A stretch of DNA of 64,000 bases, from IMG/VR virus record IMGVR_UViG_3300034683_000092, positions 1 through 64,000 of that record; one strand, 5' to 3'. The notes under the pieces were generated by a model, which was not told the DNA's origin, made no database searches, and was given only the letters and a program-made list of their open reading frames with translations. Below, piece by piece: positions 1-26,298 of the stretch; within the stretch, counting starts at the first letter, position 1, and the number at the start of each line of letters is the position of its first letter. The DNA comes from a virus. A program made the translations under genes and the position numbers.

Positions 1-1765
1 TATTCGCATACGTAGCCGTGGGCGCAATAACCGCAGACGCACTGCGCGAAGAAGCAGTGCTATTACGCGCAGCACCACCAAAAGACACACCCTTACGTGC
101 TTTTTTACCCGCAGTGGCACCTCCTAATCTATACGAATAAGCACACTCTCCAGTATGCAATGAGCCACCACCATTCTTGATTATTAATGAATTATTGTTC
201 ATTCTTAACACCCAACCTTCACCATTTGCAATTTGTTGCACTTTTTGGTAAGCATTTTCAAACGCATATTTCACGCCTAAATCTTTTTCAGCACTATCGG
301 TGTCAATAGTTACTTTGTTAACATCGCTAGTCTGATAGAAATGATAATTTGTATTGTCTGTCCAAGCATCTATTCCGCTAGTCCAGCAATACAAATGCCC
401 CCACGTTGCAACCCTACCTTTGATGATAACCTGCTCAAGCAAGTAATCAATCTGCATATTGGTAACATCAACATTATTAGTTACATCACGACCTGTAAAG
501 CTAACAGTAACTTTTTTCCTAAGTTTGGCTGTCATTTCGCCATCAACAAGGCCGTTGTGACCTGTAATGTTGGCATATTGATAAGTCGCACCGTCATAAC
601 TAAAATCAGTATTAGGCGCTATGCTGTTAGCGTAAGCATAACTTAACGCCAACTGTGCCTCAAACATCTTCAGTAATGGTCTCTGACCGTTAAGCAAAGT
701 CCAAAAGTTAACGGCAGGTTGTCCGCTTGCCGATGAAAAGCGGCTGCTTGACAGATTATAATAGTTAAATGTAGCATTTGTTTCAGTCACACGAACGCCT
801 GTCACTGTGCCCCAAGTGCTAACAGTTGGTGCACTATCGTTAGATGAGAGTGCTTTGCCAGCATAAGCACTACCGTGGTAATCTTTGGTTTTGAACTTGA
901 TGCATAGCAATGTATGCCATACGTCTCTATCAAGCCAGAAGCTGTTAGAGTAAGGCACATTCTTGCTTGTGTCAGTGTTTTTATCCCTAGCATATAACTC
1001 ATAATTGAACCTTGATACTTCTGCTTTGATGCCTCCTAAACCGTTGGCAAGGTAGGATATACCACCGACACCAGCTCCACCTGTACCTGCAACTGTGTTA
1101 TCACGGATAGACCTCTGCTTACCATCTTTAATAGTAGAATAATCAATACAAACACCATGAGCAGGTATTTCTATTGCCGCATCACCATCGTAAACAAATG
1201 GCACTTTACCAACTAGCCTGCGCTCGTAAGTCTCGTTTGTGCCTCCATTTAAGACGTAAATAGGACTTTCGTTGACTAACATAACATCACTACCATCATC
1301 GGTTACAATTGTACCGTCAATGATAATGTTGCTATCTGTTCCGTCTTCCATCTTGAATAGGTTAACTTGATTAAAGTAACCCGTAACCTTACCATCTTTG
1401 ACTTTGGCCACCTTAAACATAGCCATTACAGGATGACTAGATTGGTAAGCTGTGGTTCCAATCCATCTTGTCATAGCAGGATCAAGACCTCTGGTAAACT
1501 CAACACCATAGCACAAGCGTTGTGCTTCAAGTTCTGTCACACGATCGGTTAGTGGCTGAATAGCCAAGTAGTTCCCTTTACACAATGGTCCCCACCATGT
1601 CGTGTCTGTTAACTCATGCCCAACGTTAGGGGCTTCTGCCGTACCCTGTTTGGATATAAACGATGATTCACCATCAAAAACGACATCAAACTTAATGTAA
1701 TTTGTTAAATTGGAATAGTTGCCTTTATAAAGTGGCGCAACTCGACCAATGATTCTTGTAGCCAT
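1..1765 (-). CDS. Tail fibre / receptor-binding protein with C-terminal CLec-type (DGR-target-like) end; 3' end outside window, absent from ORF track
   Basis: Manual translation from ATG 1765 (MATRIIGRVAPLYKGNY...DVVFDGESSF) is open for 588 codons to position 2 and ends ...RKGVSFGGAARNSTASSRSASAVIAPTATYAN; lies in the fibre gene block. Confidence 0.85.
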   Translation of the reverse strand, partial: MATRIIGRVAPLYKGNYSNLTNYIKFDVVFDGESSFISKQGTAEAPNVGHELTDTTWWGPLCKGNYLAIQPLTDRVTELEAQRLCYGVEFTRGLDPAMTRWIGTTAYQSSHPVMAMFKVAKVKDGKVTGYFNQVNLFKMEDGTDSNIIIDGTIVTDDGSDVMLVNESPIYVLNGGTNETYERRLVGKVPFVYDGDAAIEIPAHGVCIDYSTIKDGKQRSIRDNTVAGTGGAGVGGISYLANGLGGIKAEVSRFNYELYARDKNTDTSKNVPYSNSFWLDRDVWHTLLCIKFKTKDYHGSAYAGKALSSNDSAPTVSTWGTVTGVRVTETNATFNYYNLSSSRFSSASGQPAVNFWTLLNGQRPLLKMFEAQLALSYAYANSIAPNTDFSYDGATYQYANITGHNGLVDGEMTAKLRKKVTVSFTGRDVTNNVDVTNMQIDYLLEQVIIKGRVATWGHLYCWTSGIDAWTDNTNYHFYQTSDVNKVTIDTDSAEKDLGVKYAFENAYQKVQQIANGEGWVLRMNNNSLIIKNGGGSLHTGECAYSYRLGGATAGKKARKGVSFGGAARNSTASSRSASAVIAPTATYAN

Positions 1766-2210: not shown

Positions 2211-3743
2211 TTAATAAGTTAAAATTAATTCTCCGTTTTCATTGATTGAATAATCATCGGTCAAAGTATCTGGGTATGTAATAGTAAGTTCGTTTAAAGT
2301 GTTTATTTCAAAAGAAACGGCCGACTGTCTATATGAGTTTAATTCAGAGTCAAGACCTATAACGTCTGCTTGTAAATTGTCAATTTCCGATTCGGCAGAT
2401 GAAAGTCTGACATCTATAGCCCTCCCTTGATTAGCAGACAAAGGTTTGGTTATAGAAGTAGATAAAAGGCTGTCTATTGCATTTAGCTGTATATTGTCGG
2501 CATTAACAGTTATCCCATCGTTAGCGGAAATAACGTTTAATGTTCTATCGGAGGATATTGCTCCTCCACCAGTAAGACCAGCTCCAGCTACTATTTGTTT
2601 TGACTGTATATCCGATTTAACATCATCAACACGCAAATCTAAATTACTCAAATCTGACCGAATCTCTGCTAAATCAGTTTGGTTTGGTATTCTCTCCCAT
2701 TTAGTCAAGTCAGACCAAGTCGTGCTGTCAATTCCATTATATTGATAATTTACAGCAGTTGGAGCAAATCCTTCTTTTAAAATGTTAAATGATATTAATC
2801 CTGATTCTTCAGCACTGTCAGCGGCATAAGAATAAGTTGTTATTTTTTTAGCTATATTGTTATTCCCATACGTCAGAGTAAATTTATTTGCGACCCCGCT
2901 ATCAGTCCAAGACCAAGGAGCGTAATCTACATATGTCGAGTCACTCAATTTATCAGCTATCTCTATAGCTGTCATTCCTGCTGTAACACTAATAGTTGAT
3001 TTTAAAACGCCATCTAGATATATAGAAATTGATCCATCTACTGTAGCGGCTTTGTTAACAATTAATTCAACTTGTGGATATTCTACTGACAAGTAAGAGA
3101 TTATCCTATTAGATGTTTTATAAACTAATGGGACTACATTTAATGCGTCCGATAAACTAGAATAATATTTTGTTGACGTACCATTTGAGCAATCAAATAT
3201 TGATGTCTCATTTTTCTTCGCATTATCTGCTCCGTCAGTTATGTCTATATAAACAGACCCTGACCATTTATATTGCGCTCCTGTATTTAAAACGTTATAT
3301 ATAACACCGTTTAATCCCGTAGCAGGCAATGATTCATATGTTGCGACATCAGTAACGGTAGCTGTATCTCCATATGTTTTTTCAATTGGAATCTTTCCAT
3401 TAGAATCTAATCCAGCATACCCACTTGGTTGATCTTTTTCAGAAACAGATTGCTTGGTATTTATTAACTCTTGCTTTGGCAATTTAGTCCATCCAGCTAT
3501 TGATTTTCTATTTCCCCAGTTATCTAATCTATATTTGCAATCTTCTGACACAACAAACCATTCTTGCCCTATTGCATCAGACCCGTCTTTTAATATAGAC
3601 AATATTGAATCGTTTATATCGTATAGTTCAGATATTGTATCTACGCTTCTGTGCCCAGAAATTTCTGTCGCATCGACAATCCCAAATGATTGCGGATTAT
3701 TAGATGCTAATTTAACTGGAAATGTTATTTTATTTTCACTCAT
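2211..3743 (-). CDS. Putative tail/head fibre protein
   Basis: Mosaic 510 aa ORF with GYAGLDSNGKIP and GAGLTGGG..SSDRTLNV fibre-type motifs and coiled-coil segments. Confidence 0.65.
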   Translation of the reverse strand: MSENKITFPVKLASNNPQSFGIVDATEISGHRSVDTISELYDINDSILSILKDGSDAIGQEWFVVSEDCKYRLDNWGNRKSIAGWTKLPKQELINTKQSVSEKDQPSGYAGLDSNGKIPIEKTYGDTATVTDVATYESLPATGLNGVIYNVLNTGAQYKWSGSVYIDITDGADNAKKNETSIFDCSNGTSTKYYSSLSDALNVVPLVYKTSNRIISYLSVEYPQVELIVNKAATVDGSISIYLDGVLKSTISVTAGMTAIEIADKLSDSTYVDYAPWSWTDSGVANKFTLTYGNNNIAKKITTYSYAADSAEESGLISFNILKEGFAPTAVNYQYNGIDSTTWSDLTKWERIPNQTDLAEIRSDLSNLDLRVDDVKSDIQSKQIVAGAGLTGGGAISSDRTLNVISANDGITVNADNIQLNAIDSLLSTSITKPLSANQGRAIDVRLSSAESEIDNLQADVIGLDSELNSYRQSAVSFEINTLNELTITYPDTLTDDYSINENGELILTY

Positions 3744-3746
3744 ATT

Positions 3747-4637
3747 TTATTGAAAATTTAAAGTTGCGTTAGTAAATGCCCCGTCATTTGCAGATGTATA
3801 CACATTTAATGTAATACTAAGTCCAGCAGCATTTATATATGTCACATTCGTTTTATTAAAAGCAGATAATACTGGTATAGATCCGTTTTGTATTATAGAT
3901 GTTAAATTGCCTAATGATTGAGGATACGCATATACGTAATATTGACCAGCAGTTGTTGTTACGCCTGAAACTGTTTTAGCTCTGCTGGTAACGAGTTCGC
4001 CAGTTAAGGCAGACACTTGTTCGCCTGTTGGCGTTTGGCTTGTCACGGAGCCTCTAAATAGATTGTGCTTAAACGTTACAGTCATTGATTTATAAGATTT
4101 GTCTTCTCCTGTAGCATTTACAACTTTTTCACCGTTTATTAATAATCCTTTTTTATCTGCATAAAGATTTTGGGTTATTGATCTATTAGACGTAATGCCT
4201 GTTATATTTGTCGTATTTGAATTTTGTCCATCAAATGGAAGAGTTGACCCTAAATCCCCATCTGTTCTTTCTGGGTTTTTATATCCAGTAGAACTGTTCC
4301 ATTTAAAATTACCACTCCAGCTAACTGAATATCCATTTTCTAATATTAAATTATCACTTGTAGATGTAGTTCCTCCGCTTATCGTCCAAGTTCCTGTCAT
4401 AGAGATTTGAACAACTGGTTTATCTTCTTCTACTTTTTTTATAGTTTCTGATTCTTCGATAGCAGTTAGCCTGTTATCAAATTCAGTTACATCATTGCTC
4501 AAGTTCGCAACGTCATCTTTTGCATTTGACAATTCATTTGCATTTGTAATAACCGCTTGAGCCAATTGATTCATCTCAGAAGCAGTCTGCTTATCTCCTT
4601 CTGATTTATATATCCATGTTGGTGTTTCTATTGCCAT
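3747..4637 (-). CDS. Putative fibre/decoration protein (N-terminal coiled coil plus beta-rich Thr/Ser/Gly domain)
   Basis: Composition and position in the late structural block. Confidence 0.55.
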   Translation of the reverse strand: MAIETPTWIYKSEGDKQTASEMNQLAQAVITNANELSNAKDDVANLSNDVTEFDNRLTAIEESETIKKVEEDKPVVQISMTGTWTISGGTTSTSDNLILENGYSVSWSGNFKWNSSTGYKNPERTDGDLGSTLPFDGQNSNTTNITGITSNRSITQNLYADKKGLLINGEKVVNATGEDKSYKSMTVTFKHNLFRGSVTSQTPTGEQVSALTGELVTSRAKTVSGVTTTAGQYYVYAYPQSLGNLTSIIQNGSIPVLSAFNKTNVTYINAAGLSITLNVYTSANDGAFTNATLNFQ

Positions 4638-7790: not shown

Positions 7791-8536
7791 TATTCACTTC
7801 TTTGATTTATTTGAGAAACAATATTTATATTACCTTCATAATATGCCTTAGCTAACTCAACAGCTCTTGATAAGATCTCTGAATGCAATATAGGATTTAA
7901 TTCGCATTCAGAAATGTCTGAAAGGCCATCTATGGTAAACCCATAAGAAGATATATCAGATAATATAATAGGCTTTGGCTTCCTTATATACCTCATGACG
8001 TATGAATCAGTTACAACTGTATGTCCAGTGTGCGGTATTATCTCGCAATAACAAGCAGTGTTGTGTTGTGAGTTATTTACTGCATATTTAAACATTCGCC
8101 ATACCTGCCTTTTTAGCGGCTCAAAATATGGTTTTAGTGACAATCTTGCGTATTCATCACTTGTTATAGGCATTATATTACATCTAGTACTTTTTCCACC
8201 ATATTTAGTTACAATAGCTTCATTCACTGGAATAAACAGATCACTTGGCGCAGCATACAAAATAGACCTTTCGTCTAATAGATCTTGCCCTGAACTTATG
8301 CTTGTATTTAATATCTTAGTTTGCATTAACTCAGAAAACTCTATTTGCCTCTTAGGATTTCCATCTATGCCAGCAGAGTACTTATTCCCTGCTGGATTAA
8401 TATGGTTTTTAAGAATCTCCTCTTGAGCTTGAGTCAGTATAAAAGACTTTTCAAATTCTTCAAGCCCAGGAGCAGTGTTATTGCTTATGTTATTATACAG
8501 AATATCAAAGCCTTGAGAAAATTCAGATACATTCAT
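7790..8536 (-). CDS. crAss-like tail ring / adaptor protein
   Basis: MNVSEFSQGFDILYNNI.NN.APGLEEFEKS..LTQAQE and RYIRKPKPIIL...CELNPILH.EIL.RAVELA. Confidence 0.8.
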   Translation of the reverse strand: MNVSEFSQGFDILYNNISNNTAPGLEEFEKSFILTQAQEEILKNHINPAGNKYSAGIDGNPKRQIEFSELMQTKILNTSISSGQDLLDERSILYAAPSDLFIPVNEAIVTKYGGKSTRCNIMPITSDEYARLSLKPYFEPLKRQVWRMFKYAVNNSQHNTACYCEIIPHTGHTVVTDSYVMRYIRKPKPIILSDISSYGFTIDGLSDISECELNPILHSEILSRAVELAKAYYEGNINIVSQINQRSE

Positions 8537-8542
8537 AAATGT

Positions 8543-9544
8543 TTACTTTTTAGTTTGCGCCATAATAGCGATTCGTAAATTCTGATTCTTAGGAAGATTC
8601 AAATACCTACTAGCAATAGCTAAAGTAGGTTCTTCGTTATCTGCACACAAAGGCATATTGCCTTCTTTCAAATAATAAAAATCTCCTCTTTTTGAAATCA
8701 CACGCTGCTCTACAGCTTCTTTAATGAGTAGTTTTGTTTTTATATATGGGTCATTTGCTACTATTATAAATAATTTGGCATTTGCCGAGATAACCTTTTG
8801 AGCTGCTGCAAGGACGATTGCTGGATCTTCTTTGGCAATTGGTCTGCCATCAACTGTTTCAACAATTAGTTTAAGAAGCTTAATGTCTGATTGCAATTCG
8901 CCTAGTTTCATATAGGCTTCCATATTTGCACTAAGCTCTTTGTTCTTAAGACTAACCTCTTCGTTCTCTTTGATTATAACAAACTTATAAGTTCTCTTTG
9001 GTGATTCCTGTAGAGTTGTTATATTAGGGCAAATAGCATCTTTATTAGACAATAGCACTTTGTACTTAATGTAATCGTCTGGAATAGACAAGTCTAAATA
9101 ATTATCCTCTTTTGTTAATCTAATGTATACGTTATCCCAATAGTTGTTAACCTTTAAATAGATAGACAAAGCATTCTTCTCAAGACCCATAGCTTGTTCT
9201 AAAAACGCTTTCTCTTTGTTAGTTAAAACATTCACGTAGTTACCGCTGCCCTCTAAACGTGGAACACAATACACTTTAACAGCATTAGCTGCCATACCTC
9301 CATAATAAACGTGTTTAGGGTTATTAATAACACCATCTTCACGAAGTACTGGTCTTATGATAACTCTTTCGTTTGTTAGGCAAGACTCTACAACGTCATG
9401 CGACTCTTCTTTTTTTGAATTAGATGTAGCGCTTTTCTTTATATCATCAATAACCTCTTTTAGATCACTAGTTACAGTTCTCTCAACAGTTTCATCGATG
9501 GATAAATCAACGTCTAATTCATCAATTTCTTTCTTCTTTACCAT
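8543..9544 (-). CDS. Conserved crAss-like protein encoded downstream of the major capsid protein
   Basis: NVLT..EK.FLE..MGLE...LS.Y....NYW and LDLS.P.DYIKYKVL motifs; synteny. Confidence 0.7.
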   Translation of the reverse strand: MVKKKEIDELDVDLSIDETVERTVTSDLKEVIDDIKKSATSNSKKEESHDVVESCLTNERVIIRPVLREDGVINNPKHVYYGGMAANAVKVYCVPRLEGSGNYVNVLTNKEKAFLEQAMGLEKNALSIYLKVNNYWDNVYIRLTKEDNYLDLSIPDDYIKYKVLLSNKDAICPNITTLQESPKRTYKFVIIKENEEVSLKNKELSANMEAYMKLGELQSDIKLLKLIVETVDGRPIAKEDPAIVLAAAQKVISANAKLFIIVANDPYIKTKLLIKEAVEQRVISKRGDFYYLKEGNMPLCADNEEPTLAIASRYLNLPKNQNLRIAIMAQTKK

Positions 9545-9578
9545 TATTTTCTCCCAATTTTAATTAATAAATATTTTG

Positions 9579-9651
9579 TGTGAATAAATAGAATTGAACT
9601 ATTGACACAAGGATTTTCAGTCCTTTGCTCTACCAACTGAGCTATATTCAC
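9579..9651 (-). tRNA. tRNA-Phe(GAA)
   Basis: Cloverleaf GTGAATA/TATTCAC, D arm GCTC..GAGC, anticodon loop CTGAAAA, T arm AATAG-TTCAATT-CTATT. Confidence 0.92.
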
Positions 9652-9660
9652 ATTTAATAG

Positions 9661-9732
9661 TTGCGAGAGGTGGAATCGAACCACCGACCATTAGGATATG
9701 AGCCTAATAAGCTACCTCTGCTCTATCTCGCA
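9661..9732 (-). tRNA. tRNA-Met(CAT), initiator-like
   Basis: TGCGAGA/TCTCGCA acceptor, A11:U24 pair, anticodon loop CTCATAT, GGTGG-TTCGATT-CCACC T arm. Confidence 0.9.
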
Positions 9733-9734
9733 AT

Positions 9735-9872
9735 TAAGAGGCTAGAATAGTCTAGCCCCATCCGTTTTAAAGTGCAGTACGCCTGGCCTTGCAGGCGAGG
9801 CACTGTAGCGTTTTTACCGCTGATCTTTATATAGACTAGCCACGCTGTAGAAAGTGGCTAGGAGAAGCCGTA
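9735..9872 (-). ncRNA. GC-rich multi-hairpin element between the MCP stop and the tRNAs, ending in a terminator-like hairpin
   Basis: CTAGCCAC/GTGGCTAG, AGCG/CGCT, GTGC-CGCCTG/CAGGCG-GCAC and GGGGCTAGA/TCTAGCCTC stems. Confidence 0.55.
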
Positions 9873-11378
9873 TTAGCCTCTTAGTAAGTTAGGTATTAAA
9901 GACATCGTTCTTGTTGCATCCAAGATGAATACTCCACCCCACCACATTCTGTGGTATACTGCTGCATCTTCGTCAAAAGACATGTTTTCGTTACCCCAGC
10001 GTCCAGTAAACGGATCTCTCAATCCCCACTGAATACCACGAACTTCCTCATGATTTTTGATCTTAGCTAACTGAATGTTAGGAGCATCAAAGTTTGTTCC
10101 GATATAAAGAATGTCATATCTATAAGATTCTGCTACGCCGCCATTTGGATGCATAATTTTATTACGTACTGGATCATCATAGAATGGATCTACCTCGACC
10201 TTTACGATAACACCATTAGGAGCTTTAAACTCTGTAAACTGGAATCCAGCAGACATTGCATTGTCGTGCAAGTTAGAACTAGTCTTGCTTATGATTGCAG
10301 GGTTCTGAGCATTCAAGAAGCTCATAGCCTTCCATCCAGAAACAGTATCTAGTACTGCCTTATGGAATTGAGTTGCTCCTCTTTCACCAGTCTTCAAGAT
10401 GAAGCGTCTTTCACCAAACCCAAGCTTAGTAGTAGAGATTTCAGTAAGTGCATCCTCAATAAGCTTCAAGCTAAAGTTATTGTAATAGATAGTATTACCA
10501 TAAGCCATCTGCGCACGAAGGCCATCACCTTGACGAATAACATTACCACTCTTACCAATGTTTAGATATTCACCATTTGAGTTTCTATTACTAACACCAA
10601 ATGAAATAACGTTTGATTTTTCCTCAGAGAATTGCTGTTCAATAGTAAGCTCAACGTGTGACATCCACATGTTAGAAACAACCTTTTTGCCATTTCCATC
10701 AACAAACGGAATACCAACAGCCACCTTTTTATTGATCATGTCGCCCTCTGCCTTGTGCTGAATACGAATTTGAGAGAACTCATTACGCATAGAGATTGGA
10801 GTAGAGAATCTAACATCACCAACTTTACGAGAACCGCCTCTTTCTACAGGAGAATATTCTACGCTAAAACGCTTACCAAGTACAAGTTGTCCAGCAGGCA
10901 TACCCTCTGTTACACCGCCAGCCATTTCGCACTTATAGACAGCATTAGAACCCTCCATCTTGGGGTCTGCCTTAATAAGTATTGGGTAAACTTCATTAAG
11001 CTCACCAACGATCATGTTGCCGTCAGCAAACCAATCTTCTGAGAATACTAAATAGAATGGTGATCCACCAACTCCGACATTTGCTACATCGCTTGCAGCG
11101 ACGATAGACCCGTCTTCTCTACGAGCCTCTAACAAAGGAATATTACGCCTTGAACTACCAATTACTTCCCAAAAATAATCATCATCATTATCAAAGTATT
11201 TAACTGGGAACTGTTTCAAGTACGCCTCAGTATTTTTTCCGTAATGCAAAGATAAAAGTTGAATCATTACATCACTTGCTTTCTGCGGACTCTTTCTGTA
11301 GATAGCACCAATATGATTATCTTTTGATGTGCCTTTCCACGATGTGAATCCGACCATTTGCCATTTTCCTAAAGCCAT
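9873..11378 (-). CDS. Major capsid protein (crAss-like)
   Basis: 501 aa; MALGKWQMVGFTSWKG..KDNHIGAI, WEVIGSSRRNIPL.EAR, AGFQFTEF.APNG.....VDPFYDDPVRNK motifs; synteny. Confidence 0.92.
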   Translation of the reverse strand: MALGKWQMVGFTSWKGTSKDNHIGAIYRKSPQKASDVMIQLLSLHYGKNTEAYLKQFPVKYFDNDDDYFWEVIGSSRRNIPLLEARREDGSIVAASDVANVGVGGSPFYLVFSEDWFADGNMIVGELNEVYPILIKADPKMEGSNAVYKCEMAGGVTEGMPAGQLVLGKRFSVEYSPVERGGSRKVGDVRFSTPISMRNEFSQIRIQHKAEGDMINKKVAVGIPFVDGNGKKVVSNMWMSHVELTIEQQFSEEKSNVISFGVSNRNSNGEYLNIGKSGNVIRQGDGLRAQMAYGNTIYYNNFSLKLIEDALTEISTTKLGFGERRFILKTGERGATQFHKAVLDTVSGWKAMSFLNAQNPAIISKTSSNLHDNAMSAGFQFTEFKAPNGVIVKVEVDPFYDDPVRNKIMHPNGGVAESYRYDILYIGTNFDAPNIQLAKIKNHEEVRGIQWGLRDPFTGRWGNENMSFDEDAAVYHRMWWGGVFILDATRTMSLIPNLLRG

Positions 11379-11404
11379 GTTTTATTATTTAAAAATTGTT
11401 ATTA

Positions 11405-12523
11405 TTACGAAAGATCTAATTCACCAGGGAGCTTAGTATTAGATTCTCTAGACGACCTGCTGCCGCCAATAGAAAAGCTTGAGCTATCGGATTTTAGCAT
11501 CTTTTCAAGATTACTTATTTTCTTTTTTGATTGTTTGTTAACCTCTTTATCTATTACTTTACCAATGTCTTTAAAGCCATCAGTCAGCGTGTATAATAGA
11601 TTGAGTTTATAATTGTATTCGACCTTGTTTTCTTTTGCATATTTTTGCAGAGCCGTCATTGGATTACCATTCTCATCCTTTGCAACAGCTTTCGTTGCGG
11701 TCTCATAAATTTGATTTTGCATCTTTTTATCAAGCGTTATTCCAGCAATAGGCTCTCTTTCATTAAATACCATATTCTTGAAATCTTCTGCCTCTTTCTT
11801 TTGCTTTTGAACGAACGCCTTATGTTCTTCTTCTTTCTCTTTTAGAATTTCATCATATTCTGATTTGAAGTAGTCCTTGCTGCTTTCTAAAGCCTCTAAT
11901 GCGTCTTCTTTGTCTGTGCCATTGTCTACTGATTTATCAGCTTCTTTCTTGGCTCTTTCAGGCTTAAAACCTCTATTGATATAGTCCTGATAAATTAATT
12001 GTCGCCTTAGATTCTCGCCATCTTCAGTCTCAGCATTTATATCGTCTTCTTTAATAGAGTTAAGAATATTAAGTGTCTTCTCAAACCCCTGGACTTCATC
12101 AACTGGGACTCCAGTTTCTAATGCAGTCTTAATGCGTTTTTGCGTTTCGTCTAAATGATTATCTATTTGCTTTTTAAACAAATCGATTAAATCATCAGCG
12201 TTTTTAACTGACTCTAGAGACTCGTTGTCTAAATCAAGAACTCCATCTTCGGCAAGAGCCTTCGCTATGGAAGCATAATTGGGAGAACTCATGTCTTCCA
12301 CATCTTCTTCTGGCTCATCCTTGTTTTGATCAACTTCTTCGGCTACTCCCTCTTGACTCTCAAATAATTCGTCATCGCCGCCGTCTCCTTCGTCAGATTT
12401 ATTGTCGTCTTTTTCTTTATTACTATCTGAACCTAGGTCTTCTAATCCACCTAGTTTATCCATGTCTTCTTCTGTGCCATTTCCCAAGGCATCAAATAGA
12501 CCGTTCTCTTCATCCCAAATCAT
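11405..12523 (-). CDS. Putative capsid scaffolding protein
   Basis: Very acidic N-terminus with helical C-terminus, directly upstream of MCP as in crAss-like phages. Confidence 0.7.
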   Translation of the reverse strand: MIWDEENGLFDALGNGTEEDMDKLGGLEDLGSDSNKEKDDNKSDEGDGGDDELFESQEGVAEEVDQNKDEPEEDVEDMSSPNYASIAKALAEDGVLDLDNESLESVKNADDLIDLFKKQIDNHLDETQKRIKTALETGVPVDEVQGFEKTLNILNSIKEDDINAETEDGENLRRQLIYQDYINRGFKPERAKKEADKSVDNGTDKEDALEALESSKDYFKSEYDEILKEKEEEHKAFVQKQKKEAEDFKNMVFNEREPIAGITLDKKMQNQIYETATKAVAKDENGNPMTALQKYAKENKVEYNYKLNLLYTLTDGFKDIGKVIDKEVNKQSKKKISNLEKMLKSDSSSFSIGGSRSSRESNTKLPGELDLS

Positions 12524-17085: not shown

Positions 17086-20000
17086 TTAATTGTGTTTATT
17101 TTTGTAATTCCTATTAAAGTAATCATCATTGCCTAAATATGTGGCATCGTCTTTTCTTACACTCTTTTTGACTCCATCATCTCCAGCTAATCTGAGCCTA
17201 TCTTCACGCAGCAGCATTAGCATAGCTAAGGCATCTACACGGTCAGTATTGAGGTCTTCAGACCACATTGAAAGCTCTTGTAACAAGGCTCTGTACTTTA
17301 TAGTATGAAGCTTCATTATATTAACTTCTTCTATTTCGATACTGCCATCAGCTTTCTCTATTTGCCTTTCCATTTCTACAGGCTTTAATAGATAATCTCT
17401 GATACAACGCCTTCCGTATGGAGCTACTTGTCCGTAGTTTCCAACTCCTTTCTTTTTATTCCCATACGTACCTGGCTTTATTATTTCTTTATCTGCCAAA
17501 AACTCTAGCGTATCAGACAGTAGGTATAATGAATTATGCTGTGAGAAGTATTTAAATAATCCTTTTTTGTTATTTTCATAATTCAACTCTGCGTTATAAA
17601 ATAAGCAGGCTCTCCTGCATATTTCATAAAAGTCATCTGCAAACATTGGTCTTCCAGTATATTCAAATACTAAGTCGTCGGTAAATAAATCAAGTATATA
17701 AAAAGATCCTAAAGATAAAGTTTCAGAGGTGTCGTCGTCATCAGTTATGTTATCGTATAAGCTTTTTATCTTATACTTCTGGGAGTCACCTCCATACCAC
17801 ACCACCTCAATGTGGATACGTCTGTTAATTCAGACCAGCTCAGCATATATCATCATCCAAAACGATTGGATGGCGGGCACTCTTGGTGGATTATATTCTG
17901 CTTAAAAACAGTTTCACCACTATGCGTTACAATGTTTAATACTTTTAAATATTAAATTATCTCGGTATTTTCTATTAAGACTTCTACCGATTTTGCCCAC
18001 TTATTCAATTAGTGTTACCACTAAAGGGTGCTAAATCAACACGTCACTACCAGCTATATATCTTCCACTTGGGACTTTACCACTGGAATCCTTTTCTGGC
18101 ATTCTAAGGATATGAACGGCTCCTTCTTTTTTATTATCTTTATGAGGAAACTCCATTATTGGTTGTAAATCTGAATCAGGTTTAAACTTAACCTCTCCAT
18201 CTTCAATGTATAGATACCCGACATACATGTCATTATAAGAAGACGGATTTGAGTCTAACTCATTAATTCTATCATTTAATTCAGCAGACGGGAATATAGA
18301 TCCACTTCTTCTCATGATTGCATCTTGTAATGTAAATGCAGTTTCAGCTTTACGTCTAGTAAGCATCATTGGGTCTGATGAATTATACTTCAGATTAACC
18401 CTATACTTTATCTCAGAAAGCATTGCACCGATTACGTCAGATACACCATCTTTATTATAATAACCAATTCTATTTATATATCCTGGGAAAAAGAATATGG
18501 TTTTTCTACTACCATTTGATCCTTTATCATAGAAGTTTGGTAGTCCATATATGTTATAACCAGATGGGCTTTGTATCAATTCTAATGCTCCTGTAAAGTC
18601 TGAATTCTCTTCACCACCTGTTCCAATAGAGTAACTTTGCCCAGCAGCAGCCTGCCCTTCTTGCACGTTTGGTAATGTTGTCTGGTAAAAATCTAAGTAA
18701 TTTGGGAAGAACCCAAACTCTTCTACAGCCTGAAAAGATGAATTATGCGTTATAACAAAGTCTCCAATAAGATATAAATGGCTATCATTATCTACTGTTA
18801 CACATTTAGCTTGCTCTCTTCCAACTAGTTCTATATTTATTATTCTTGATTTACTAGGACATTTGTTTATTCTAACAGAATGACTACCTGAATAACAGCC
18901 CCATCCTAAGCTTCTAGCTATTCTGGATATAATCTCTACTTCTTTTTTGTCTAAGTCATTGAGCCACAGGTAGTTATAGTAAATATTGTCGTCGTATTTG
19001 GCTTTAAAATACTGAAGCCTTTGATATATTGATAACTCCAATATGTTACCACCAGAATCAACAAACTCAACTACATCTACATCTTTCTCGCATAAAGCCT
19101 CTATTGGGCTACAGCTTCTTATATAGACATAATTTGATTTCATTAAGTCTATTAGCTCCTCTGTCGTTTTATCGACTTTCTTGCCAAGTATATCAACTTG
19201 CCATAAGTGATCTAAAGTAGAATGAACCGTTCTTCCATCTGATAGTTCTATTTTATAAATATCTTGTTCTCCAACCTCATGTATTTGTATAACATTTGTT
19301 GGTTTTCCATCATCTCCTATTAGTGTATCTCCAAGTTTAATGTCTCCCCACTTTTTAATACCAGAATATGTTATTACTTTTTCAGAGTATGGATGAGGCC
19401 TCTTACCACGGGCTTTACCTGGGTCATCTTTAATAGCTAGTCCCAATACCTCGTTTTGCGAACCTCTAGGCCTATTCTCTGAGTCCATAAACCCACTCTT
19501 CCACTGCATCTCAGACATCGAATCCTTGAGCCTTAATGATGGAAATTCAGTATGGTCTCCACAATGATTAATAGCATTAACAAACTTATCTAACGTACCA
19601 TCTTTATTTAGATACTCTTTTAAGTAAGAAAACATATTAGCTTTAACCTTTGACTTATTGAAGTCATCCTCTCCAAGTAAAAACAGTTTTGCTAATATAG
19701 CCGCTACGGAATAAGAGTTGTGAGTTGGTACACACTCATTTATCAAATAGCAGCCAGATTCATTATCAACTGTAACGCATTTACATTGCTTTTCACCAAT
19801 TTCTACAACGTTTGTTATTTCTGATTTATCGCCAAACTCTTCAATCGAACATGGGCTGTTTTTTATATAATAAGAATGATCTTTGTTTTGTAAACATAAA
19901 CTTAGATCATACGTGCTTAAATCTATATGGGTTATATCGTTATCTCTGTATATAATCCATTCGTGATCTATAGATGCCTCGACTGATCTACCATCTGATA

Positions 20001-20751
20001 AAGTCAATTTATAAACAATTGCAGAGTCGTCAAATGGTATATCTATTACAGTAGTAGGCTTTCCATCATCACCAAATAAAACGTCCCCAACTTCTATATC
20101 TCCCCACTTTTTAACGCCATTAGGTGTATATACAAACTCATCGTACGGATGCGCTTTTGATGCACCTCTACATGCTATTTCAGCTCCATGCTGGCCGCCT
20201 TTAAAGTCATTATATAGACCTCCATATCTAGCTTGTTCTATATAATGGTATCTCCAGTAAATACCCTCCCACATATCAGGGAAGTCATCTAATCTAGTAC
20301 CAAAGGTCTTGCTTGCGTCTAAACGAACAACAGTGATAGGCATATAGTTTAAATAGAAATATAAATGCCCAGTGACCCATTCTCCGTCAGACGGTCGCAC
20401 CATGCCGTATCTACATCTGTGAACCTCTTGCTTTAAGAATCTATAAAACTCGCTATTCTTATTAGGGTTCGGCTTTAGCTTGGTGTATACTCCATGTTCT
20501 CTAAAATGCATTAAGGCTGGCCTGAAATAGTCCATGTCTTCTAATACATGAGGTTTAACTAAATCAACAATTATTCTTCCCTGAGAATCTCTTGGTCTGT
20601 CTTTAGCTCTTTCTCTATTTGGAGATATTAAGTTCTGTATAAATGGTACATTAGATATGTATTCTATAAGAGTATCCCTTACTTCTCTATCCAGCGAATC
20701 TAATAGCTCATCAGTTAGCTGCGTCTGAAACTCATTAACTTCTATTGCCAT
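17086..20751 (-). CDS. terL: Terminase large subunit; exons 20751-18039 and 17741-17086, two inteins; predicted mature protein about 757 aa
   Basis: Walker A ACRGASK/S, Walker B FQAVEE, nuclease motif GSDVYDDD restored by splicing, YENNKKG and DRVDA. Confidence 0.93.
17742..18038 (-). mobile_element. Group I intron (297 nt, no ORF) in terL
   Basis: P1 exon GTGT/GCAC with U-G at the splice site, P3 GTGGGCA/TGCCCGC, P7 GCATA/TATGC, terminal G; removal restores frame and motif. Confidence 0.9.
18742..19398 (-). mobile_element. Class 3 intein (219 aa, Pro1) just before TerL Walker B
   Basis: PHPYSEKV..., DHLW (block B Trp), KCVTVDN (block F Cys), THN/S. Confidence 0.88.
19717..20154 (-). mobile_element. 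Class 3 mini-intein (146 aa, Ala1) in TerL Walker A
   Basis: AHPYDEFV..., DHEW, KCVTVDN, THN/S. Confidence 0.9.

Positions 20752-24302: not shown

Positions 24303-24304
<2 letters not shown>
24085..24304 (-). CDS. Small two-TM membrane protein (holin-like); start approximate, probably MKDFIIK
   Basis: SSKRVSGFVGW plus two hydrophobic segments; start overlaps the groEL stop. Confidence 0.55.

Positions 24305-26298
<1,994 letters not shown>

Follow-up and report, generated by a model that had tools for sequence, protein, structure and literature searches.

Diversity-generating retroelements (DGRs) that lack avd and have the order TG-VR-TR-RT, often as incomplete cassettes, have been published for alpha crAss-like phages (PMC7290462), and DGRs have been published for the epsilon and zeta crAss-like groups too (PMC11054128, PMC12386605); a 2023 review of the Crassvirales cites the alpha case only (PMC10136315). 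We found no paper on a DGR in Steigviridae-like phages. Here we describe a locus at the start of a 64,000-nucleotide stretch of viral DNA (the window), which corresponds to bases 1-64000 of a 96,583-bp IMG/VR contig. The DGR at this locus is a further example of a system known in crAss-like phages since 2020, and it leaves the understanding of the DGR mechanism unchanged.

The DGR of crAssphage LMMB and of other Intestiviridae of genus I (Morozova et al. 2020, PMC7290462) resembles ours in that its cassette lies at the end of the structural block and consists of TG-VR-TR-RT without avd, with many related genomes carrying incomplete cassettes, and in that its target is of the tail-fibre type, with a variable repeat (VR) of ~35 codons rich in AAY-derived codons. 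It differs in lineage, since the MCP of our contig is 63% identical to that of Steigviridae, not Intestiviridae, and in its target, which is a 486-aa tail-collar fibre protein, whereas the target here has ~600 aa and is TaqVP-like.

TaqVP itself, a DGR variable protein of Thermus aquaticus (5vf4), has a C-type-lectin/formylglycine-generating-enzyme-like fold with a C-terminal VR and is the best match to the predicted fold of our target. However, sequence identity is about 10%, TaqVP is bacterial and chromosomal rather than a phage fibre, and the protein here has swappable N-terminal adaptor and coiled-coil modules. In the Bordetella BPP-1 system (Mtd, bRT, Avd), mutagenic retrohoming likewise acts on a receptor-binding tip displayed on a C-type lectin (CLec) fold; its reverse transcriptase (RT) is the closest solved relative of ours (8ub7), Mtd matches our target model (Z 8.6), and Mtd_N (PF18454) is found in two relatives of the target. 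In contrast to BPP-1, the relatives of our locus have no avd between VR and RT, RT identity is low, and the RT here has an extra C-terminal domain of ~100 aa. The Bacteroides Hankyphage (p00) DGR, also from Bacteroidales hosts, provides the nearest GenBank phage RTs, including the C-terminal extension, but Hankyphage is a temperate siphovirus of ~42 kb with an unrelated target gene.

The window starts inside a probable fibre gene of a crAss-like phage

The contig from which the window was taken is estimated to be 95% complete and is classed as linear, without terminal repeat. Its MCP is 60-63% identical to those of cr108_1, cr111_1, cr85_1, and IAS virus, of which cr108_1 is classified in Steigviridae, Pipoluvirus. 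Portal and TerL match PHROG families, and GC skew changes sign near 27 kb of the contig. With homologous MCP, portal, and terminase, and a genome of ~97 kb in two opposed gene blocks, the source phage is crAss-like (Crassvirales), with Steigviridae as the nearest family. Elsewhere in the window, the terminase large subunit ORF (18031-20751, minus strand) has 906 aa and contains inserted segments that match DnaC-like and primase PHROGs, which are likely to be inteins; a phage-encoded GroEL-type chaperonin is found at 24303-25916, minus strand (phrog_5725, 1.2e-142).

Both contig ends cut genes. The frame cut at base 1 and its neighbours in the window are as follows.

1-91, minus strand: very probable variable repeat, first 91 of about 110 nt, codons 559-588 (GVSFGGAARNSTASSRSASAVIAPTATYAN)
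2-1765, minus strand: putative DGR target gene, 588 codons from the ATG at 1765, open at the contig start
1779-2168, minus strand: upstream 129-aa ORF, sharing ~95 N-terminal residues with the N-terminus of relatives' targets
2211-3743, minus strand: 510-aa tail protein gene, with PHROG matches to tail protein and tail needle families

The initial annotation had proposed an unlisted ORF running from 1765 to 1 and had quoted its terminal codons. The ORF is real, with 588 codons on the minus strand and open at the start of both window and contig, and the quoted codons are exact. It was absent from the default ORF list for the sole reason that its frame runs off the sequence end. The contig start cuts it about 10 codons short of the stop, leaving ...GECAYSYRLGGATAGKKARKGVSFGGAARNSTASSRSASAVIAPTATYAN as its last residues. 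Of 120 homologues of the encoded protein, the closest end in IAGGFRV(A/E)L.., and P0001-P0018 are 90-97% identical to it. Scans of Pfam, PHROG, and NCBIfam gave no family for the target protein, GenBank phages gave no DNA match, and a tblastn search of 50,697 GenBank phage records returned a sole match, 22% identical, in an epsilon crAss-like phage.

The N-termini of the target homologues are modular and exchanged among relatives, two of which carry the Pfam domain Mtd_N (PF18454). Several close relatives (P0002, P0005, and P0010) start with the MTKLYKQENGIWILQTSDGRG... of the 129-aa ORF, followed by a coiled coil that joins the conserved target body. Since its first ~95 residues thus form the target N-terminus in these relatives, the 129-aa ORF probably encodes the adaptor that attaches the fibre to the virion. 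A separate gene here, this ORF ends in a ~35-aa module that is also terminal in the 510-aa tail protein; fibre parts seem to have undergone fission and fusion as modules. The target gene stands at the end of the tail/fibre block, next to the gene for the 510-aa protein. Because of this neighbourhood, its modular N-termini, and the fold described below, we infer that the target is a tail-fibre or receptor-binding protein.

The target gene very probably ends in a DGR variable repeat

The tip of this gene had been suggested to be a DGR variable repeat, within the interval 1-150. Its VR character is borne out by what follows, but the VR proper is shorter, running from 91 to 1 in the window; the contig start cuts off its last ~20 nt, with the IMH-like GC-rich end. 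Homology between VR and TR (template repeat) begins, in relatives, at the equivalent GGTGT codon pair.

The composition of the VR sets it apart from the genome. GC content is locally 56%, compared with 34% for the genome. Ten of the last 30 codons are GCG, ACG, CGC, TCG, or CCC, which together account for 1.5% of the 25,501 codons counted in long ORFs of this genome (binomial P 1.6e-11), and the third positions of these 30 codons are T in 18 cases, G in nine, C in three, and never A. The codon pattern that had been described, with a scaffold of rare GCG/ACG/CGC alternating with diverse T- or C-ending codons, is therefore real.

We then compared the VR with its counterpart in L003, a metagenome contig encoding a protein 91% identical to the target. 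There are 17 nucleotide differences in the 30 codons, all 17 at codon positions 1-2, whereas in the other 484 codons 133 of 181 differences (73%) are at position 3 (Fisher P 1.2e-9). For 20 close homologues whose bodies are 88-97% identical, VR columns have a mean entropy of 1.32 bits and body columns one of 0.23 bits; at least five residue types occur in 12 of 30 VR columns versus 6 of 484 body columns, and variable VR columns alternate with invariant ones. Hypervariability at codon positions 1-2 among homologues, which had been predicted, is thus found, and at fixed sites. Mutagenesis of AAY to NNY codons cannot yield K, E, Q, M, or W. These five residues fill 2.9% of the cells in hypervariable columns, compared with 18% in the protein bodies, among 111 homologues. 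The variable codons also coincide with AAY, TAT, or ACG codons in the TRs of three related loci (L010, L011, and L016). Window positions 1-91 are thus very probably a true DGR variable repeat, encoding the tip of a receptor-binding protein with a CLec fold.

Related loci carry complete cassettes or have lost template and reverse transcriptase

In L010, L011, and L016 the order is target-VR, TR, RT, and a small ORF of 100-115 aa.

L011 (Bacteroides MAG): target 7923-9617; TR 9701-9811; RT 9916-11238; small ORF 11244-11591
L010 (Dysgonamonadaceae MAG): target 94-1926; TR 2053-2165; RT 2269-3636; small ORF 3646-3981
L016 (IMG/VR): target stop 2454; TR 2536-2645; RT end 4047; then the small ORF

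No ORF, and hence no avd, lies between VR and RT in these three loci. This absence appears compatible with DGR membership, since avd is an accessory gene that not all DGRs have, and the published crAss-like lineage-3 DGRs likewise have no avd (PMC7290462). DGRs typically have an IMH element at the 3' end of the VR and a differing IMH* in the TR; in relatives the VR ends in GCTGGCGGCTTCCG.GT and the TR has GCTGGCAGCTAACGTGT, whereas the 3' end of the window VR is past the contig start.

The adenine-specific template repeat expected of a DGR is present in relatives. Mismatches between VR and TR fall at TR adenines in 21 of 21 cases (L009/L011), 15 of 17 (L010), 19 of 19 (L012), and 17 of 18 (L016), and in 1083 of 1210 over 60 IMG/VR loci. 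Searches of IMG/VR for close relatives with a single protein found none, the exact VR/TR scaffold pattern gave no match there, and a query with the RT fragment described below returned only a 33% relative. An alignment-based scan of IMG/VR found 80 target-family loci, many on contigs of 90-98 kb. A scan of JGI metagenomes gave five short loci, of which only L003 spans the VR.

Among the 78 IMG/VR loci that could be evaluated, 60 have a TR about 150 nt past the stop, followed by a full-length RT in 58 of them. The other 18 are without TR and RT but keep a diversified VR, with 183-804 nt to the small ORF, and are deletion variants. Their residual spacers fall into classes of 183, 218, 286, 413, 772, and 803 nt, and these discrete classes suggest a few recurrent deletion events. 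L003, where 8 bp separate the end of the target from the small ORF, is also a deletion variant without TR and RT.

Loci without TR and RT: L022, L026, L037, L056-L057, L063-L067, L069, L073, L076, L078, L084, L087, L090, and L092 (IMG/VR); L003 (metagenome)

As about a quarter of the related loci have lost TR and RT while keeping a diversified VR, a VR signature alone is no proof of current activity.

One Bacteroides MAG contig of 3.69 Mb, CAXXSS010000001.1, contains the crAss-like fibre/DGR segment twice (L009, 1-12495; L011, 3295741-3313324). In L011, what comes after the segment is a tandem-repeat region (11766-12363) and a bacterial cstA-like gene. The explanation could be a crAss-like phage, either integrated or episomal, or else a misassembly of long reads.

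A DGR-type reverse transcriptase is encoded at the opposite contig end

An RT had been proposed to lie beyond position 1 or to act in trans. It is absent from the window, and a search of the full contig found a truncated DGR-type RT at the other end, which on a circular map is beyond position 1.

Contig 96581-95658 (L002:9075-9998), minus strand, outside the window: DGR-type RT fragment, 5'-truncated open frame, 307 aa
Contig 95643-95338, minus strand: small ORF after the RT, 101 aa

The fragment contains LDIKKFYESVD, LLIGSPDSQ (with the DGR hallmark IGxxxSQ), and RYADDM (YADD), so that both (I/L/V)GxxxSQ and YxDD are present. It matches Pfam RVT_1 at 4.8e-11, over model positions 58-177 only, and a PHROG RT family at 8.7e-49; NCBIfam has no DGR-specific RT model, and all matches of the fragment there are far below cut-off. 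The nearest GenBank phage RTs are the DGR RTs of Bacteroides Hankyphage, with about 30% identity over residues 21-307. For a full-length homologue 68% identical to the fragment, the Bordetella DGR RT (8ub7) is the closest relative of known structure, at 1.2e-18, with group II and retron RTs at about 1e-4. In the L011 RT the fragment corresponds to residues 131-438, with 68% identity, and it is 75.6% identical to the L016 RT; the first ~130 RT residues are absent from the assembly. The 101-aa ORF is 88%, 48%, and 32% identical to the post-cassette ORF of L003, L011, and L010, respectively.

After the thumb, the RT has a conserved C-terminal domain of ~100 aa (…IKIERPFDGRKVKIDK…ILQDRGYYFEGTI), common to the L010, L011, and L016 RTs and covered by the Hankyphage RT matches. 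One may speculate that this domain stands in for the absent Avd.

Because the gene order in relatives is target-VR, TR, RT, and small ORF, the two contig ends adjoin in the genome. The assembly broke inside the DGR cassette, with the VR at contig base 1 and the RT entering from contig base 96581. By comparison with L011, L010, and L016, the missing stretch is ~0.7 kb (700-760 nt) and comprises ~30 nt of the target gene (including the VR end), the spacer, the TR, and ~390 nt (~130 codons) of the RT. We infer that the VR/TR repeat, together with population heterogeneity, caused the break inside the VR.

A template outside the window had also been predicted. Word-7 blastn of bases 1-200 detected no TR beyond chance in the full 96.6-kb contig, and the best candidate in an adenine-tolerant sliding scan of both strands had at least 19 non-A mismatches in 91 nt; blastn and the sliding scan likewise found no second VR-like copy or second target in the contig. 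No copy of the template was therefore found in the window or in the rest of the contig. Relatives carry theirs just downstream of the target, 82-150 nt past its stop, which is where our contig is broken. No copy is expected in the contig if the TR of this phage sits in the ~0.7-kb assembly gap, as it appears to do from the order in relatives. The template sequence that had been predicted agrees codon for codon with the L010 and L016 TRs at nearly all AAT sites, and these TRs have AAT or AAC where the window and L003 differ. Two codons need correction. L003 has ACG where the window has the GCG that precedes the last AAT, so the template codon there is probably ACG. The variable TCT that follows GTG probably goes back to a TAT, since TAT is the codon of the L016 TR and homologues show Y, F, S, or C at this site.

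The target body is predicted to adopt a TaqVP-like fold

We modelled P0001, a homologue of 598 aa that is 92% identical to the target and has a complete C-terminus, with AlphaFold from a 57-sequence alignment. The model has a pLDDT of 85.9, with residues 1-82 disordered. In an exhaustive VIA-align structural search, TaqVP (5vf4) came first, with Z 20.5 and 269 residues aligned at an rmsd of 3.4 (model residues 115-597). Next came formylglycine-generating-enzyme-like proteins, TvpA, a DGR protein of Treponema (Z 11.6), and Mtd (Z 8.6). Further matches include the Nanoarchaeota DGR protein AvpA (Z 6.7) and many C-type lectins (Z 5-6). Foldseek against the PDB gave a weak match to TaqVP, with an E value of 5.6e-3. 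The CLec fold that had been predicted from the C-terminal residue pattern is supported by this model of a close homologue, in which the target body from residue ~115 would adopt a TaqVP-like C-type-lectin fold, with the VR displayed on the CLec.

Proposed mechanism and alternatives

The cassette would consist of 1) target-VR, 2) a spacer of ~80-150 nt, 3) a TR of ~110-120 nt, 4) an RT of ~440 aa, without avd, and 5) a small ORF of ~100 aa. As established for DGRs, the RT would copy TR RNA into cDNA, misincorporating opposite template adenines, and the mutated cDNA would replace the VR. About 13 AAY template codons (plus TAT/ACG) would turn into NNY codons, and the A-free codons GCG, CGC, TCG, and CCC would hold the scaffold fixed; the last ~35 residues of the ~600-aa receptor-binding protein would form its ligand-binding surface. 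The VR signature, the RT in the same genome, the TRs of relatives, and the fold all support the original reading of the gene's end as the mutagenised tip of a receptor-binding protein.

Whether the DGR still operates is the point on which the main alternative turns, namely that the VR is a relic of past diversification, frozen since the cassette became defective by truncation of the RT or loss of the TR. We regard this as unlikely, although the RT is known only from residue ~131 on, the contig contains no TR, loss variants are common (the 8-bp spacing in L003 and 18 of 78 IMG/VR loci without TR and RT), and incomplete cassettes are known in alpha crAss-like phages (PMC7290462). However, the RT frame is open to the last contig base and the target frame to the first, so that both are ended by assembly cuts, not by stops. 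The part of the RT that is present, 307 residues long, is intact and retains YADD and IGxxxSQ, and its identity to full-length RTs of complete cassettes is 68-76%. The ~0.7 kb that is missing is exactly what would fill a complete cassette; a VR/TR repeat in a heterogeneous population would also account for a break inside the VR. The cassette of this phage is likely to be currently active. We put forward more tentatively, as a possibility, that a crAss-like lineage related to Steigviridae uses an active DGR without avd to diversify a large, unnamed family of ~600-aa TaqVP-like receptor-binding proteins, with the RT C-terminal domain perhaps replacing Avd.

Phage fibre tips are often hypervariable and modular, and N-terminal modules are swapped in this target family, as would be expected if ordinary diversifying selection or recombination had shaped the receptor-binding tip without any retroelement. 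This explanation is nonetheless highly improbable, since variation is limited to positions 1-2 of fixed codons, with T or C kept at position 3, residues unreachable from AAY are depleted six-fold, the scaffold is built of A-free codons that are otherwise rare, a DGR-type RT is found in the same genome, and the cognate TRs of relatives show mismatches almost only at adenines. Equally remote is an assembly chimera, in which the contig ends would come from different genomes and the VR-like end would be mis-joined: the contig is linear without terminal repeat and genes are cut at both ends, but the target gene runs unbroken into the contig's own block of tail genes, and independent contigs from several collections show the same gene order.

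Implications

A DGR cassette at the break explains why the contig ends where it does and predicts that the genome would be closed into a circle by about 0.7 kb. It also assigns a probable function, receptor binding, to a fibre gene that had no name, and the receptor-binding protein of an uncultured crAss-like phage is the obvious handle for host prediction and host-range work. The target family, with more than 110 loci in IMG/VR, is a widespread and unannotated protein family whose members emerge as DGR targets with a predicted TaqVP-like fold. One of its 90%-identity clusters (P0101) has 6131 distinct member sequences, a number consistent with massive VR diversification in public metagenomes.
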